A stretch of DNA of 64,000 bases from a virus (taxonomy: Duplodnaviria > Caudoviricetes). Below the pieces are notes generated by a model that was not told where the DNA came from, did no database searches, and saw only the letters and a list, made by a program, of their open reading frames with translations. Shown piece after piece: positions 468-64,000 of this stretch. Positions within the stretch are counted from its first letter, which is position 1; each line of letters opens with the position of its first letter. The translations under genes were made by a program, and so were the position numbers. The stretch covers positions 188 through 64,187 of the IMG/VR virus record IMGVR_UViG_3300042367_000066. One strand, given 5' to 3'.

Positions 468-480
468 AATAAATAGTATT

Positions 481-534
481 AAACGTTTCGCCATTCTGTG
501 GCTCATCAGTAAGGATACACATCCTTATACGTTT
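481..534 (-). ncRNA. Hammerhead ribozyme, type III
   Basis: RNA: AAACG-UA-UAAGGAU(GUGU)AUCCUUA-CUGAUGA-GCCA(CAGAA)UGGC-GAAA-CGUUU; full core, three perfect stems, GUA cleavage triplet (cut between 528 and 527). Confidence 0.93.
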
Positions 535-711
535 CTAAACCAATTACAAGACTCCCACCTTGCAATCTTTATAACACCTATTCGATGCTGTTTACATTTC
601 GCTCTTCACGGCTCCTAATCCGCTTATAACACCTGTTTGTTCAGTAGAGTGGTTATGGTTACACTTAAACCTCCGTCACTTTTTAAAACTGTGATCTCGT
701 TTTCAACACTG

Positions 712-814: not shown

Positions 815-994
815 CTAAGTTATTGATAACGTGTGAGTTATGAGATTTCTCTATTTTTTAATAATAAGTACACGCGCGTGAGGGGACTTGTTTTATTGCT
901 CGTGTGAGGATCTCTGAACACAAAAACATATAATTTCGTACTGTACGCAAGATTATGCTCTCTCAAGCCAACAAACGTGTTCAAAACGTCGGTG

Positions 995-1322
995 GAATGT
1001 AAGCAAAACCTCGGGAAGTCCCTAGAATGTAAAGGTGGCGTTAAAAATGTAAAGAAATGTAAACTTTTTTTAAACTTTACATCGCGCTAACCCTTGGTAT
1101 CATTGACTTAAGCCTCAAAAATGTAAGAATGTAAACTTTACTCCCTTCTTCACAGCGAAAAAAATATATATATTATAATAATTATCTATAGGCTGTATAT
1201 AGGGTATAAACCCGCATTTCTACATTTTACTACGTAATCGTAGTGATATCAACGGCTCACACGATGTAACGGTTCCAAATACATTACATTTGCTTTACAT
1301 TTCCTTACATTTATTCTACATC
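995..1322. repeat. Origin-like region: ATGTAA iterons (left) and TTACAT/TACAT inverted copies (right) around an AT-rich core
   Basis: aatgtaa at ~997, 1027, 1047, 1056, 1120, 1128; ttacat/tacat cluster at ~1221 and 1284-1321; AT core 1158-1185; non-coding, at the transcription divergence point. Confidence 0.6.
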
Positions 1323-2201: not shown

Positions 2202-3809
2202 ATGGAAGAATTTGGATACAGTCCCAAGGAACTACTGTTCGACGAGGAAGGAAGAGCAAAACTAATTACAGGCATAACTACAATTGCCAAGGCGGTTAAG
2301 AGCACGCTAGGACCAAGGGGTCGTACGGTTCTGATCGAGTCACCGAACCATACACATGGTATCACAGTTACAAAGGATGGGGTAACGGTTGCTAAGTCAA
2401 TCTTCTTGCTAGACCCAGTGGAGAACCTAGCCGTCAAGATGATGAAGGAGGCAGCAGATAGGACAGCCACCAGTGCTGGAGATGGAACCACAACAGCCAT
2501 CGTGCTTACGGAGGCAATCGTGAGACAGGGTCAGGAGCTCTTGAACGAAAAACACAACGTGACCGAGGTGATCAAGAACATCAACAGCGTTTCAAACGGT
2601 ATCATCCACAGCCTTGAGAGATCATCCAAGAAGGTGAGTGGAAAGACGCTGCACAACGTGGCATCTATCTCGGCCAACAACGACAACGAGATCGGTAAGA
2701 TCATATCAAACGCATACACGAAGGTTGGTAAGAATGGGATCGTAACGATCGAGAACTCACAGACTGCTGAGACCTACTCAGAGTTCACGAATGGGATCAA
2801 GATCGGAAGGGGTTACACCTCGAACATGTTCGTGAACGACTTCAAGAACGACGAGTGCATCATGGACGATGTGTTGGTGCTGGTTACAGACCAGGAGATA
2901 TCCAACATCCTGTCGATAGAGGGGGTTCTAAAGACGGTGATACAGGAGAACAAGAAGCTGCTCATCATAGGACCATGCAACCAGAACGTGATCAACACGC
3001 TGGCAGTCAACGTGGTGAAGAACAAGCTGAAGTTCTGTAACATTGCACCACCAGAGTTCGGTTACAAGATGAACGAGCTGATGAGCGACATCGCGCTGTC
3101 TTTGGGTGCGAAGTACTTCTCGGAGAGCACAGGAGACGACCTAAGTCTGATATCAATAGAGGATTTAGGTAGGGCAGAGAGGATCATAATAGGAAGGGAT
3201 ACTTCGTCCATCATCAAGCCAGAGAGCAAGCAGCAGGACGTAGACGACAGAGTCAGTCAGCTGTGGGTAGCTCACGAGGCTGCACAGAAGAAGCAGGACA
3301 AGGAGTTCATCAAGAGTAGGATTGCCAGCCTTACAGGTAGCATCGCTGTTATATACGTGGGAGGTAACTCTGATTTGGAGCAGAAGGAGAGAAAGGACAG
3401 GGTAGACGACGCGGTATGCGCGGTAAGGTCTGCACTAGAGGAGGGGATCCTTCCAGGAGGAGGCTTAGCCTTGTTCAACGAGTCCTACAGAATCATTGTA
3501 GACGCAGATGACATGATAGAGGACATCAGTGCGGAGCAGTACGTAGCTATGCAGATCATGGCAAGGGCTATACAGGCACCGTTGTTGCAGATCCACGAGA
3601 ACGCAGGTAACGATGGGTACGAGATCATGACTGGATGTGCATCAAACACGAACACTGGGTACGACGTTAAGAACGACGTGTACGGTAACATGTACGATAT
3701 GGGGATCATAGACCCACTGAAGGTTACGAAGAACGCGCTTAAGAACGCTGTCAGTGTGGCCACAACAATACTTAGTACTAACGCAATTATAACAATGACA
3801 CGAGCATAA
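2202..3809 (+). CDS. groEL: Phage chaperonin GroEL (Cpn60)
   Basis: STLGPRGR, VTKDGVTVAK, AGDGTTTA, EEGILPGGG, GIIDPLKV motifs; lacks C-terminal GGM tail. Confidence 0.97.
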   Translation: MEEFGYSPKELLFDEEGRAKLITGITTIAKAVKSTLGPRGRTVLIESPNHTHGITVTKDGVTVAKSIFLLDPVENLAVKMMKEAADRTATSAGDGTTTAIVLTEAIVRQGQELLNEKHNVTEVIKNINSVSNGIIHSLERSSKKVSGKTLHNVASISANNDNEIGKIISNAYTKVGKNGIVTIENSQTAETYSEFTNGIKIGRGYTSNMFVNDFKNDECIMDDVLVLVTDQEISNILSIEGVLKTVIQENKKLLIIGPCNQNVINTLAVNVVKNKLKFCNIAPPEFGYKMNELMSDIALSLGAKYFSESTGDDLSLISIEDLGRAERIIIGRDTSSIIKPESKQQDVDDRVSQLWVAHEAAQKKQDKEFIKSRIASLTGSIAVIYVGGNSDLEQKERKDRVDDAVCAVRSALEEGILPGGGLALFNESYRIIVDADDMIEDISAEQYVAMQIMARAIQAPLLQIHENAGNDGYEIMTGCASNTNTGYDVKNDVYGNMYDMGIIDPLKVTKNALKNAVSVATTILSTNAIITMTRA

Positions 3810-4339: not shown

Positions 4340-4597
4340 ATGCAGCCAATCAATAAATACTTAGTAATCAACACAATAGAGGAGCAGATGAGGACCCAGT
4401 CGGGTCTGCTGCTCACTGGAAACGAGACAGAACAGTTCAGGTACAAGAAGGGAGAGGTTGTGAAGCCTGGAACTAACGTGGACTGCGTGAAGGAGGGAGA
4501 TATAATATACTACGACAAGAACGCTGGTTACACGATGCTGGTAAACGACATCAAGTACACAGTGATCATGGAGAGAGACATCGTGGTTGTCCTCTAG
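4340..4597 (+). CDS. groES: Co-chaperonin GroES (Cpn10)
   Basis: MQPINKYLVI, mobile loop RTQSGLLL, GEVVKPG, VKEGDII, ERDIVVVL. Confidence 0.9.
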   Translation: MQPINKYLVINTIEEQMRTQSGLLLTGNETEQFRYKKGEVVKPGTNVDCVKEGDIIYYDKNAGYTMLVNDIKYTVIMERDIVVVL

Positions 4598-25902: not shown

Positions 25903-27324
25903 ATGCCAGCACAAGTAGCAAGTACCCCAGGGTTCGCATTACAGCCAAGCGCAACGAGACAAACTCTTGCGACAAATTACATCACTGACTTCAACTTCTT
26001 GAATCAGTACCTTCCAGACACGTACGAGAAAGAATTCGAGCGTTATGGAAATCGCTCAGTAGCATCTTTCTTAAGAGCTGTTGGAGCAGAGATGCCATCT
26101 ACATCAGACCTTATCAAGTGGGCTGAACAAGGGCGTCTACACACTAAGTACGTAAACTGTGCCTCTGGAGCAGCAGCTGGAGCTGATACTGCAACAATCA
26201 CAGTTTCTGACACATTGATCCCATCTTCTAACCAATCTGGTACTTCTAGAATTGCTTTTAAAGTTGGTCAAACAGTATTGATCTCTGACAACGCGTCTTC
26301 AAAATCAAACAAGGGTATCATCACAGCTGTTGCTTCTGGTGCAAACACATTCGACGTTGCATACTACGCAGCTGCAGGACAAACATTTGCATCTACAGAT
26401 ACTGTAACTTGTTTTGTTTACGGTTCTGAGTTCAGAAAAGGAACAGAAGGAATGGTTCAGTCTGTTGAGGCTTCTGACTCTATCTTCTCTAACAACCCAA
26501 TCATCATCAAAGACAAGTACGCTGTTAGTGGATCTGATATGGCTCAGATTGGATGGATTGAGGTTACAACTGAGAATGGAGCTACAGGATTCTTGTGGTA
26601 CATTAAATCAGAGCACGAGACTCGTCTACGTTTCGAGGACTACTTAGAGATGTCTATGATCGAGGCAGTTCCTGCTGAGGCAGATTCTGGAGCTAAGGCT
26701 ACTACATCTGTAGGAAACAAAGGATCTGAGGGTATGTTCTACGTTATTGGAAACAGAGGTAACGTATTCAGTGGTGGTAACCCAACAGCATTGTCTGATT
26801 TTGATGAGATCATCAAGAGACTTGACAAGCAAGGTGCTATCGAAGAGAACGTATTGTTCATCAACCGTCAGTTCTCTTTTGACATTGACGATATGTTAGC
26901 ATCTCAAAACTCTTACGGAGCAGGTGGTACATCTTATGGTTTGTTTGATAACGACAAGGAGATGGCATTGAACTTAGGGTTCACAGGTTTCCGTAGAGGT
27001 TATGACTTCTACAAGACTGACTGGAAGTACTTAAATGATGCAGCTCTTAGAGGTGGTATCGTTGGTGGTGCTATCAATGGTGTATTAGTTCCAGCTGGAT
27101 CTACTACAGTATACGATCAAGTTCTTGGTAAAAACGCTAAACGTCCATTCTTACACGTACGTTACAGAGCTTCTGAGACAGAAGACAGACGTTACAAGAC
27201 TTGGATCACAGGTTCTGCAGGTGGAGCACAAAACTCTAGCTTAGATGCAATGGAGGTTCACTTCTTATCTGAGAGAGCTTTATGTACATTAGGAGCTAAT
27301 AACTTCTTCTTGTTCACAAACTAG
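25903..27324 (+). CDS. Major capsid protein
   Basis: 473 aa, strongly biased codons, follows scaffold and precedes terminator; QYLPD.YEKEFERYGNR, W.EQGRLH motifs. Confidence 0.88.
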   Translation: MPAQVASTPGFALQPSATRQTLATNYITDFNFLNQYLPDTYEKEFERYGNRSVASFLRAVGAEMPSTSDLIKWAEQGRLHTKYVNCASGAAAGADTATITVSDTLIPSSNQSGTSRIAFKVGQTVLISDNASSKSNKGIITAVASGANTFDVAYYAAAGQTFASTDTVTCFVYGSEFRKGTEGMVQSVEASDSIFSNNPIIIKDKYAVSGSDMAQIGWIEVTTENGATGFLWYIKSEHETRLRFEDYLEMSMIEAVPAEADSGAKATTSVGNKGSEGMFYVIGNRGNVFSGGNPTALSDFDEIIKRLDKQGAIEENVLFINRQFSFDIDDMLASQNSYGAGGTSYGLFDNDKEMALNLGFTGFRRGYDFYKTDWKYLNDAALRGGIVGGAINGVLVPAGSTTVYDQVLGKNAKRPFLHVRYRASETEDRRYKTWITGSAGGAQNSSLDAMEVHFLSERALCTLGANNFFLFTN

Positions 27325-57522: not shown

Positions 57523-57589
57523 TGGTCAAGGGGTTGGAATCGAACCAACGACTTTCTTTCGACCCTCTAACCAATGAGGTACCCTTGAC
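57523..57589 (-). ncRNA. tRNA-like RNA with vestigial anticodon arm (67 nt)
   Basis: GUCAAGGG/CCCUUGAC acceptor, D arm CCUC-AUUGGUUA-GAGG, T arm GUUGG-UUCGAUU-CCAAC, ends ...GACCA; anticodon arm only UC-GAAA-GA. Confidence 0.75.
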
Positions 57590-57727: not shown

Positions 57728-57820
57728 ATCTTGTGGCAGGATTCGAACCTGCACCACCCCGTACCTGCCGAGATATTACTGATTGATTACAGTAAGTGCT
57801 AACCATTACACCACACAACA
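57728..57820 (-). tRNA. Atypical tRNA/pseudo-tRNA with 8-nt anticodon loop and long variable arm
   Basis: D arm GUGU-AAUGGUUA-GCAC; UUACUG-UAAUCAAU-CAGUAA; variable UAUCUCG/CGGGGUG; T arm GCAGG-UUCGAAU-CCUGC; acceptor has a G:G mismatch; identity unassignable. Confidence 0.65.
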
Positions 57821-62924: not shown

Positions 62925-63102
62925 CTATCTCTTGAAATATTTGTTCTGTAATCCAATCACTATTCAATACTTGCTCTAGTATGTCATAAGCCTCGTCGTC
63001 TGTGCACTCGTGATATTGTTTAACATCTTTTATGTGCCAAAGGCTACCCGTACAGTAACCCGCTTCCTTAAGTATAGCCTTCGCTTGTTTTATTTTGTCC
63101 AT
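62905..63102 (-). CDS. Hypothetical protein
   Basis: AK..L..AGY...LW...DV...CTDDEA..IL. Confidence 0.65.
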   Translation of the reverse strand: MDKIKQAKAILKEAGYCTGSLWHIKDVKQYHECTDDEAYDILEQVLNSDWITEQIFQEIDDTTKI

Positions 63103-63275
63103 GATGTGATAAAGTTTTTATAGTCGTTATAAATATAAAACACCGTCTGCTCAAACGTGCAGTCAGGTTGATAGATGTTTGGAGCATACTCCTTAATGAT
63201 GGCGGTCACTTGCTCCAATGTTGGAACCTCGTCCTTGTACGTGTCAGCGATGTGCTGATAGATTGATTTCTTCAT
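63090..63275 (-). CDS. Hypothetical protein (61 aa)
   Basis: Re-started at MKKSIYQ; the longer track ORF runs through the ribozyme. Confidence 0.6.
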   Translation of the reverse strand: MKKSIYQHIADTYKDEVPTLEQVTAIIKEYAPNIYQPDCTFEQTVFYIYNDYKNFITSWTK

Positions 63276-63349
63276 AGTATTGATTTTATAATTAGTACCC
63301 ATACTGATATGCAGATTAATATTAATACTGCCCATACAATTCCTTTCAT
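63272..63349 (-). CDS. 25-aa membrane peptide
   Basis: MKGIVWAVLILICISVWVLIIKSIL; ATG just after hammerhead A; ATGA overlap with next gene. Confidence 0.55.
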   Translation of the reverse strand: MKGIVWAVLILICISVWVLIIKSIL

Positions 63350-63365
63350 AATAAATATATTTAAT

Positions 63366-63418
63366 GGTTAAGACACCCACTTGGGGTGTTTCGATCATTT
63401 AGATCTCGTCAGTTAACC
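63366..63418 (-). ncRNA. Hammerhead ribozyme, type I (A)
   Basis: GGUUAA-CUGACGA-GAUC(UAAAU)GAUC-GAAA-CACCC(CAAGU)GGGUG-UC-UUAACC; cut between 63372 and 63371. Confidence 0.93.
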
Positions 63419-63604
63419 TTGGCTCTCAATCCAACGTCTAAACGCAATAGCCACGTCTCCATCACTCCAATTAACTTCGTCTGCCTTGTCGCATACATCG
63501 TCATAACAAAATTGAGTTATGTCGTCAATATTGCTTGGAATATCGATATTTATTCTATCAAATATATCGATAATTAAACCTTGAATTTCATTTTTTTTGT
63601 CCAT
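63413..63604 (-). CDS. Acidic early protein (63 aa)
   Basis: Between hammerheads B and A; its TAA lies in stem I of A. Confidence 0.7.
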   Translation of the reverse strand: MDKKNEIQGLIIDIFDRINIDIPSNIDDITQFCYDDVCDKADEVNWSDGDVAIAFRRWIESQG

Positions 63605-63622
63605 GATAAATATTTTTTAATT

Positions 63623-63677
63623 GGTTAATACACCCCGTAGTGGGGTGTTTCGGATACTTAATCCTCATCAGTTAACC
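63623..63677 (-). ncRNA. Hammerhead ribozyme, type I (B)
   Basis: GGUUAA-CUGAUGA-GGAU(UAAGU)AUCC-GAAA-CACCCC(ACUAC)GGGGUG-UA-UUAACC; compensatory changes relative to A. Confidence 0.93.
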
Positions 63678-63754
63678 TAGATTATTGATATTAAAGTTAG
63701 AAATACTGCCCATAGTACTAGGGCAAGTCCGATGTCTTTTAGGTTCTTATCCAT
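63677..63754 (-). CDS. 25-aa membrane peptide
   Basis: MDKNLKDIGLALVLWAVFLTLISII; TAG overlaps first base of hammerhead B. Confidence 0.5.
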   Translation of the reverse strand: MDKNLKDIGLALVLWAVFLTLISII

Positions 63755-63872
63755 AGATTCCAAATGTTAGGTGGGAGCACTCTCCCGTTACTAATCCTAC
63801 TACTACTCTTAAAAATCCTGCCACGAATAACGTGGTCAAAGATGCTACAAAAACTTTTTCAAATGTGTTCAT
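63747..63872 (-). CDS. 41-aa membrane peptide
   Basis: MNTFEKVFVASLTTLFVAGFLRVVVGLVTGECSHLTFGIYG; ATG just after hammerhead C. Confidence 0.55.
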   Translation of the reverse strand: MNTFEKVFVASLTTLFVAGFLRVVVGLVTGECSHLTFGIYG

Positions 63873-63888
63873 GATAAATATATTTAAT

Positions 63889-63941
63889 GGTTAAGACACC
63901 CACTTGGGGTGTTTCGATCATTTAGATCTCGTCAGTTAACC
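63889..63941 (-). ncRNA. Hammerhead ribozyme, type I (C), identical to A
   Basis: Same sequence as 63366-63418; cut between 63895 and 63894. Confidence 0.93.
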
Positions 63942-64000
63942 TTTTGTACTATTTTTTTAATTCTACTTCTGTTTGGCTATAATCCATATCAATTGTCAAT

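Follow-up and report, generated by a model that had tools for sequence, protein, structure and literature searches.

Arrays of hammerhead ribozymes, several on one strand and set between small phage genes of varying identity, are a layout known since 2011, when Perreault et al. (PMC3088659), in the available text of their paper, proposed that such clusters process long phage transcripts into gene-length messenger RNAs (mRNAs). The same text considers that cleavage followed by ligation could give spliced or circular products from clustered phage hammerheads, neither of which was detected (data not shown there). A 2019 review, in the part accessible, treats as a suggestion the idea that they process polycistronic transcripts, and regards the role of the many phage hammerheads as still unresolved. 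Here we describe such an array in an uncultivated freshwater phage of approximately 64 kb that is related to Flavobacterium podophages. The stretch of DNA analysed, referred to below as the window, is 64,000 nucleotides (nt) long and comprises bases 188–64187 of the 64,187-base IMG/VR record IMGVR_UViG_3300042367_000066. Whereas the arrays tested by Perreault et al. were, according to that text, from Clostridium scindens, Azorhizobium and Agrobacterium, the present one consists of three type I hammerheads (HHR1 to HHR3) and one type III hammerhead in a freshwater phage. Compared with the arrays as these sources present them the additions are modest, namely a rule of approximately 23 nt between cut and start codon, a stem I found across a whole subclass, and homology breakpoints at cassette borders. 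We consider that the hammerheads are probably co-transcriptional mRNA-processing elements that also form the boundaries of gene cassettes.

The initial annotation of the locus likened it to a second kind of system, that of retrozymes and viroids. In the metazoan non-long terminal repeat retrozymes, according to the available text of Cervera and de la Pena 2020 (PMC7229834), type I hammerheads stand at both ends of a 170–400-nt unit, the ends of a monomer can pair into the ribozyme again, and they can be joined by an RtcB-type ligase. The two pieces, or modules, that cleavage at HHR1 to HHR3 would release have ends that could be re-formed likewise. However, that text describes retrozymes as tandem copies of one non-coding, highly self-paired unit with circles observed, whereas the phage modules are known from DNA, carry differing protein-coding cassettes, repeat only the hammerhead and leader (70 nt, at HHR1 and HHR3) and show no strong self-pairing. 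Of the retrozyme and viroid hallmarks, the locus therefore has ends that can re-form a helix, and has neither a single tandem unit nor a non-coding, highly self-paired RNA.

The ribozymes and the repeat that contains two of them are as follows.

63889..63941, minus strand: type I hammerhead HHR1, predicted cut 63895/63894 between GUC and U; core and three stems read directly, matched by the descriptor; RF00163 25.2 bits; model R1 68.3 bits, E 7.6e-23
63623..63677, minus strand: type I hammerhead HHR2, predicted cut 63629/63628 between GUA and U; read directly, matched by the descriptor; no RF00163 listing; R1 67.2 bits, E 2e-22
63366..63418, minus strand: type I hammerhead HHR3, predicted cut 63372/63371, after GUC; sequence equal to HHR1; RF00163 25.2 bits; R1 68.3 bits
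63874..63943, minus strand: exact 70-nt direct repeat, copy 1, holding HHR1 and the first 17 nt of its leader
63351..63420, minus strand: exact 70-nt direct repeat, copy 2, holding HHR3 and leader

All three type I hammerheads read, in order, GGUUAA, CUGA(C/U)GA, stem II with a 5-nt loop, GAAA, stem III, U, C or A, the cut and UUAACC. Stem I has 6 bp, stem II 4 bp and stem III 6–7 bp; II and III are looped and I is open. Each has the type I core (C3 U4 G5 A6 N7 G8 A9, G12 A13 A14, A15.1-U16.1, and an H17 that is not G), and the pairs next to the core are all standard (10.1-11.1 G-C, 15.1-16.1 A-U, 1.1-2.1 U-A). Direct reading and the descriptor thus confirm the shared stem I GGUUAA/UUAACC reported in the initial annotation. 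Its further statement, that stems II and III vary, is true between HHR2 and the other two and fails between HHR1 and HHR3, since these are identical over their full length and both lie inside the 70-nt repeat. Stem III is near-identical even when HHR2 and the other two are compared (ACACCC and ACACCCC).

A descriptor that requires the core, a stem I of at least 4 bp, a stem II of at least 2 bp and a stem III of at least 3 bp matched exactly three sites on the two strands of the window, HHR1 to HHR3, against a mean of 0.03 sites per shuffle in 100 dinucleotide shuffles, three of which contained one site. The Rfam family Hammerhead_1 (RF00163, clan CL00010) has the same catalytic core, three-way junction and open stem I as these sequences, whereas the phage subclass differs from it in that stem I, of 6 bp, lacks an internal loop and stem II, of 4 bp, is closed by a UNANU loop. 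Since RF00163 is a poor judge of HHR1 to HHR3, a covariance model of the subclass, R1, was built from other viral contigs only: from 108 distinct hammerheads of the first collection scan, the 71 type I hammerheads with a 13-nt stem-loop II and a length of at most 62 nt were kept and 37 omitted. R1 recognised all three with E values of approximately 1e-22. In the alignment of the 71, which came from a descriptor that itself demands pairing, compensatory change is seen in all three helices (both sides change in 14/16 pairs, including 6/6 pairs of stem I across all lineages; 99.0% of cells are paired), with a covariation score of 0.692, compared with 0.170 for shuffles, 0/500 of which reached the observed value. 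Loop II of the subclass in this alignment reads U-N-A-N-U, with the first U invariant (71/71) and the A and last U at least 90% conserved; this may reflect a tertiary contact. A pseudoknot between loop II and the leader was checked by eye, found inconsistent across lineages and dropped. The stretch 280–168, which opens with GGUUAAC as the hammerheads do, was also discarded; it has no core and an ordinary fold (z −0.40).

A stronger regularity than the shared stem I is the spacing between the ribozyme and the start codon that follows. The distance from cut to ATG is 22, 24 and 22 nt for HHR1, HHR2 and HHR3. Among the matches listed in two scans of other viral contigs, described below, it has a median of 23 nt (quartiles 20–26) over 245 distinct hammerhead-plus-leader units when an ATG opening at least 25 codons is counted, and it falls within 15–35 nt in 209/245 units, compared with 164/975 random positions in the same loci. 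The type III hammerhead stands before open reading frame (ORF) a as the type I hammerheads stand before their genes. Leaders are alike within an array and unlike between lineages, some with GGAGG and others without, and a fixed start distance in lineages of differing leader type argues for selection on function. This spacing is as expected of an element that processes and insulates, and would place the 5' end of the downstream message at approximately the upstream edge of the ribosome-covered region. A word search of an open-access subset of the literature found nothing on a fixed cut-to-start distance in phages, a result that argues only weakly for absence.

The features of the leftward operon of small genes that contains the array are as follows.

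63629..63894, minus strand: module 1, predicted 266-nt cleavage product; 22-nt leader, ORF c, ORF d and HHR2 up to its cut
63372..63628, minus strand: module 2, predicted 257-nt cleavage product; 24-nt leader, ORF e and HHR3 up to its cut
480..535, minus strand: type III hammerhead, predicted cut 528/527, with its 3' end approximately 14 nt ahead of the ORF a start codon (ATG); 43.2 bits with RF00008 (gathering score 48.5), E 4.1e-6
467–273, minus strand: ORF a, upstream of ORF b in the operon
63949..64000, minus strand: 3' end of ORF b, approximately 75 amino acids (aa), upstream of HHR1; starts at window position 166 and reads across the record ends
63872–63747, minus strand: ORF c, 41 aa, hydrophobic, grand average of hydropathicity (GRAVY) 1.08
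63754–63677, minus strand: ORF d, 25 aa, hydrophobic, GRAVY 1.46; start overlaps the ORF c stop
63604–63413, minus strand: ORF e, 63 aa, acidic, isoelectric point (pI) 4.05; stop codon within stem I of HHR3
63272..63349, minus strand: ORF f, 25 aa, hydrophobic, first gene past HHR3; start 22 nt from the cut; absent from syntenic relatives
63090..63275, minus strand: ORF g, 61 aa, first gene common to syntenic relatives

The two pieces foreseen in the initial annotation agree with these coordinates: that of 266 nt (63894 to 63629) encodes two putative membrane peptides, the hydrophobic ORFs c and d, and that of 257 nt (63628 to 63372) the 63-aa acidic protein. If the copy at the record start is used, the frame of ORF b continues uninterrupted through the junction. 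Since the type III hammerhead, the minimum free energy (MFE) structure of which is the hammerhead fold (z −2.02), precedes ORF a of the same leftward operon, the array mixes types III and I. With three type I and one type III hammerhead on the minus strand amid ORFs a–f, it is a clustered array in the sense of at least two hammerheads on one strand with flanking phage genes. Searches gave no Pfam family (83 ORFs, approximately 95% of the window) and no PHROGs family (19 ORFs) for ORFs a and c–m, and blastn of 63340–63945 against GenBank phages returned nothing at E ≤0.01. In a gene-free stretch upstream of the operon leader (990–1100, minus strand) the sequence TTTACATT occurs four times, once as CTTACATT; these repeats may be promoter or operator sites.

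Synthetic insulators of the RiboJ type place a hammerhead just upstream of a translation start, where it removes upstream RNA and gives context-independent expression; RiboJ is an engineered part that, together with a helper hairpin, remains attached to the downstream RNA. The phage type I ribozymes, by contrast, are natural and would remain on the upstream RNA, with insulation as their predicted effect. In the reading we favour, the type I trio and the upstream type III hammerhead would be processing sites in an operon of small early genes. Each ribozyme would fold once transcribed and cut 22–24 nt (for the type I sites) ahead of the next start. The upstream piece would end in the compact hairpins of stems II and III with a 2',3'-cyclic phosphate, and the downstream piece would begin with 5'-OH-UUAACC, followed by a short leader that is rich in A and U and lacks a Shine-Dalgarno sequence. 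Stem I, weak at 6 bp (its duplex by itself contributes just −4.1 kcal/mol in the nearest-neighbour model), would then dissociate and leave the leader single-stranded. The outcome would be linear, gene-sized messages on which translation starts independently of upstream sequence. What the sequences show is the motifs, their subclass, the set distance to start codons and the cassette differences among relatives; effects on translation and stability are predictions. At the DNA level, the hammerhead plus leader would be a portable cassette border at which related phages acquire, drop and swap small accessory genes. The results thus point to a concrete, testable role, that of natural insulators with a standard leader for swappable accessory genes.

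The initial annotation had also suggested that the repeats act as DNA recombination cassettes, and this is supported, though not proved. Six syntenic relatives (L008, L030, L040, L070, L078 and L115) were identified by tblastn and blastn against fetched loci, and the blastn comparison covered nine loci chosen by protein matches or leader likeness. ORF d and ORFs g–m are common to the syntenic relatives, while ORFs e and f are in none of the six and ORF c is in L115 only. In the loci compared, blocks of homology start or stop at hammerhead-plus-leader units, so that relatives differ by whole cassettes at these borders; L008 and L070 have ORF g immediately behind the hammerhead that follows ORF d. 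Stem III of HHR2 recurs in L070 with a different stem II. Among the matches listed, 178 hammerheads with GGUUAA or GAUUAA include 25 variants of stem-loop II and 12 of stem-loop III that each occur with at least two partners. The phage also has genes for a Sak-type annealing protein and a PDDEXK nuclease, which we count in favour of cassette exchange.

A second arrangement is present at the ends of the record. Read on the minus strand, the last 183 bases are an exact 127-nt copy of the first 127, followed by 56 nt that continue as the sequence after HHR3 does and not as that after HHR1. This path (record bases 1–187; window 63874–64000) leads from gene b through a hammerhead to ORF f and bypasses 523 bp with both modules. 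Because the 70-nt repeat is shorter than the 127-nt overlap, a common assembler word size, the deletion path should have needed real reads. The genome is probably circular or terminally redundant, and these ends indicate that the population probably holds a 523-bp deletion variant. Contig depths in one sequencing run (X2) were 70.7 over the modules, 85.4 downstream and 167.5 over the 70-nt repeat, which fits a minority of genomes without modules. The repeat forms a separate contig of approximately double depth in runs X1 and X2, loose ends fall exactly at hammerhead borders in runs X3 and X4, and run X3 contains one weak joint (63279 to 63866) with only 29 letters on one side.

Homologs of ORF e (48–73% identity) occur in 20 other viral contigs. 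In eight of the loci that carry them without hammerheads (L229–L233, L236, L238 and L242), small genes are separated by a repeated leader, TTAAACCAAAACAAAG-ATG, the first letters of which resemble the 3' strand of stem I (TTAACC).

We also examined how far the stem I shared by HHR1 to HHR3 is peculiar to this array. The first scan searched IMG/VR with a pattern blind to stem I and returned 95 stretches, on each of which the descriptor was then run. It can be seen from this sample that type I hammerhead arrays are common, with spacings of 141–1928 nt, and that, of 52 distinct pairs of neighbours, 16 agree fully in stem I, 10 in stem II and 10 in stem III. Per pair, the difference between neighbours comes to 0.196 in stem I, compared with 0.365 and 0.404 in stems II and III, which answers affirmatively the question, raised in the initial annotation, of whether stem I is the more conserved. 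Compatibility of adjacent copies is nevertheless by no means universal: in 29/52 neighbouring pairs the 3' strand of the upstream copy can form every pair with the 5' strand of the downstream one, and in 13/52 there is a mismatch at pair 1.1, next to the cut and ligation site (for example GGUACA beside GGUACU, or GCACUU beside GCACUA).

The second scan was seeded on GGUUAA, and its figures are lower bounds, among the matches listed. GGUUAA/UUAACC was found in at least 151 hammerheads (at least 125 distinct) at no fewer than 110 viral loci, combined with at least 91 different stem-loops II, at least 109 different stem-loops III and diverse leader types; within this lineage 37/44 neighbouring pairs are cross-compatible. 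Since this stem I is common to at least 151 hammerheads of very different phages, its identity between neighbours, so far as sequence can tell, is a trait of a large ribozyme subclass and no adaptation of this array. It permits end-pairing everywhere in the subclass and gives no evidence of adaptation for circles in this phage.

Two further observations concern the arrays in these scans. All three reading frames are closed by stops before the cut in 94/136 distinct GGUUAA-lineage hammerheads (0.69, against 0.22 in letter-shuffled sequences; among the matches listed) and in 22/91 outside the lineage, for which, in the lineage, stem I provides UAA, the core UGA, and the beginning of loop II UAA or UGA. 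The stop codon supplied by GGUUAA may contribute to the retention of this stem I. A much larger array than that in the window is found on an IMG/VR contig of 22,483 bp (L033/L034), where at least 10 type I hammerheads, most of them with GUAAUA as stem I, lie 294–1928 nt apart on one strand; behind each come a GGAGG leader and an ATG.

The central proposal of the initial annotation was that double-cut modules pair their own 5' UUAACC with their own 3' GGUUAA and are joined, by the reverse reaction or a host RtcB-type ligase, into useful amounts of exonuclease-resistant circular mRNAs. The geometry on which it rests is correct: each piece starts with UUAACC and ends with GGUUAA and the rest of the ribozyme, and the ends of a monomer can re-form the helix. 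In the nearest-neighbour model stem I closes with a probability of 0.20–0.21 in the free pieces, at +1.6 to +1.7 kcal/mol over the MFE, and stem I is the best conserved helix within arrays, with the high compatibility of neighbours in the GGUUAA lineage given above. RtcB is present in at least one member of the Bacteroidota, the control genome of Bacteroides thetaiotaomicron scoring above cut-off, and RtcB circularises 30–80% of metazoan type I retrozyme monomers in vitro, according to the accessible text on retrozymes (PMC7229834). That text, however, puts hammerhead self-ligation at just 1–3% even in retrozymes, and a six-frame search found neither RtcB nor an RNA ligase in the phage. Neighbour identity of stem I is the subclass trait described above, and only 29 of the 52 pairs are compatible, with 13 mismatched where ligation would take place. 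The modules resemble ordinary coding RNA and are not rod-like (fold z −0.41 for module 1 and −2.66 for module 2), and in module 2 the leader pairs preferentially with an internal site. GGUUAA contains the ORF e stop codon, and the 3' strand of stem I falls at −22 to −17 relative to the next start, so that translation should hold the helix open and compete with re-pairing of the ends; a circle would in addition keep an intact ribozyme and should re-open. There is no endless frame, since 266 and 257 are not multiples of three and the ORFs have stops. Perreault et al. sought circular or spliced products from three arrays and, in the text available, report none (PMC3088659), and our word search of open-access literature found nothing on circular RNAs from phage hammerhead arrays, again weak evidence of absence. 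Circular mRNAs would be striking if true, and we regard them as improbable here, the proposal of exonuclease-resistant circles finding no support in these results. Still more doubtful is a broader version, in which GGUUAA/UUAACC acts as a universal adaptor between RNAs: the 5'-OH end of any cassette would dock on any hammerhead 3' domain, and a host RtcB-type ligase of Flavobacteriia would then circularise single cassettes into translatable mRNAs or link them in a different order. If true, it would account for a stem I that stays constant beside drifting stems II and III.

Two other explanations dispense with circles. The 5'-OH and cyclic-phosphate ends left by hammerheads alter nuclease access, and the ribozymes might chiefly tune mRNA decay and timing through segment-specific half-lives (for example fast loss of early membrane-peptide messages), possibly conditionally, with no benefit to initiation and no cassette role. 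Differing stability of processed segments is a published suggestion in the accessible part of the 2019 review, and regulated cleavage in phages is discussed in the available text of Perreault et al. (PMC3088659), but neither the tight 20–26-nt start spacing nor the homology breakpoints at hammerhead-plus-leader units are predicted by decay, which overlaps with the processing and cassette reading instead of excluding it; as a sole account we think it unlikely. That the units are selfish or neutral repeats, spread by duplication or recombination without benefit to the phage and with incidental cleavage, is in our judgement the least probable of these accounts. HHR1 and HHR3 lie in an exact 70-nt duplication, selfish elements often contain hammerheads according to the same text (PMC3088659) and ORF e homologs manage without hammerheads; against this stand the intact cores, the compensatory changes that keep three helices in 71 diverged copies, and a start distance that is fixed over many phage lineages with different leaders.

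Several results weigh against processing and cassette boundaries as well. HHR1 and HHR3, at 25.2 bits, fall below the RF00163 gathering score of 34, and HHR2 is unlisted by Rfam RF00163 even in a 181-nt search, although we read the sub-threshold score as a limit of the Rfam seed. Cleavage in vivo is what we infer from the DNA sequence. The processing model gives no reason for the higher conservation of stem I, relative to stems II and III, inside arrays. A type I hammerhead lies within 2.5 kb of the ORF e homolog in 0/20 contigs, so the ribozyme is not needed to express ORF e, and the cargo moves between contexts. A strict four-gamete test for reassortment of stem-loops II and III gave 0 pairs among the same 178 listed GGUUAA/GAUUAA hammerheads. 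Run X1 has no depth deficit over the modules (7.08 vs 6.0), and the DNA contigs of all four runs (X1–X4) break at the 70-nt repeat.

Besides the annealing protein and nuclease already mentioned, the products encoded elsewhere in the window include a crAss-type muzzle-protein domain, a BT4734-like primase, GroEL and GroES; the muzzle domain, the primase and the Flavobacterium phage relatives indicate the phage context. The nearest named relatives of the primase are a spring-water podovirus (60.8% identity) and Flavobacterium Elemovirus phages. On the basis of these sequence relationships the host is probably a member of the Flavobacteriia, with which the A/U-rich leaders without Shine-Dalgarno sequence also fit. 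The GroEL-like chaperonin lies at 2202–3809 (plus strand; Cpn60 E 2.3e-61) and the GroES-like protein at 4340–4597 (plus strand; Cpn10 E 3.9e-11). At Rfam gathering scores a single tRNA is the sole match in the window (57728–57820, minus strand, 33.7 bits), with a 35-nt insertion where the model expects 17; near it is a weak, sub-threshold tRNA-Sec-like match (57525–57589, minus strand, 29.4 bits).

The cultured Flavobacterium phage vB_FspP_elemoE_10-3D (MT497078.1) has one R1 match (38 bits, 27095–27152) between two minus-strand genes. An annotated plus-strand ORF, phanotate41 (MT497078.1 27080–27187; L251 781–888), overlies this minus-strand match and is probably spurious. As a cultured phage with one related hammerhead, MT497078.1 is a possible laboratory entry point.

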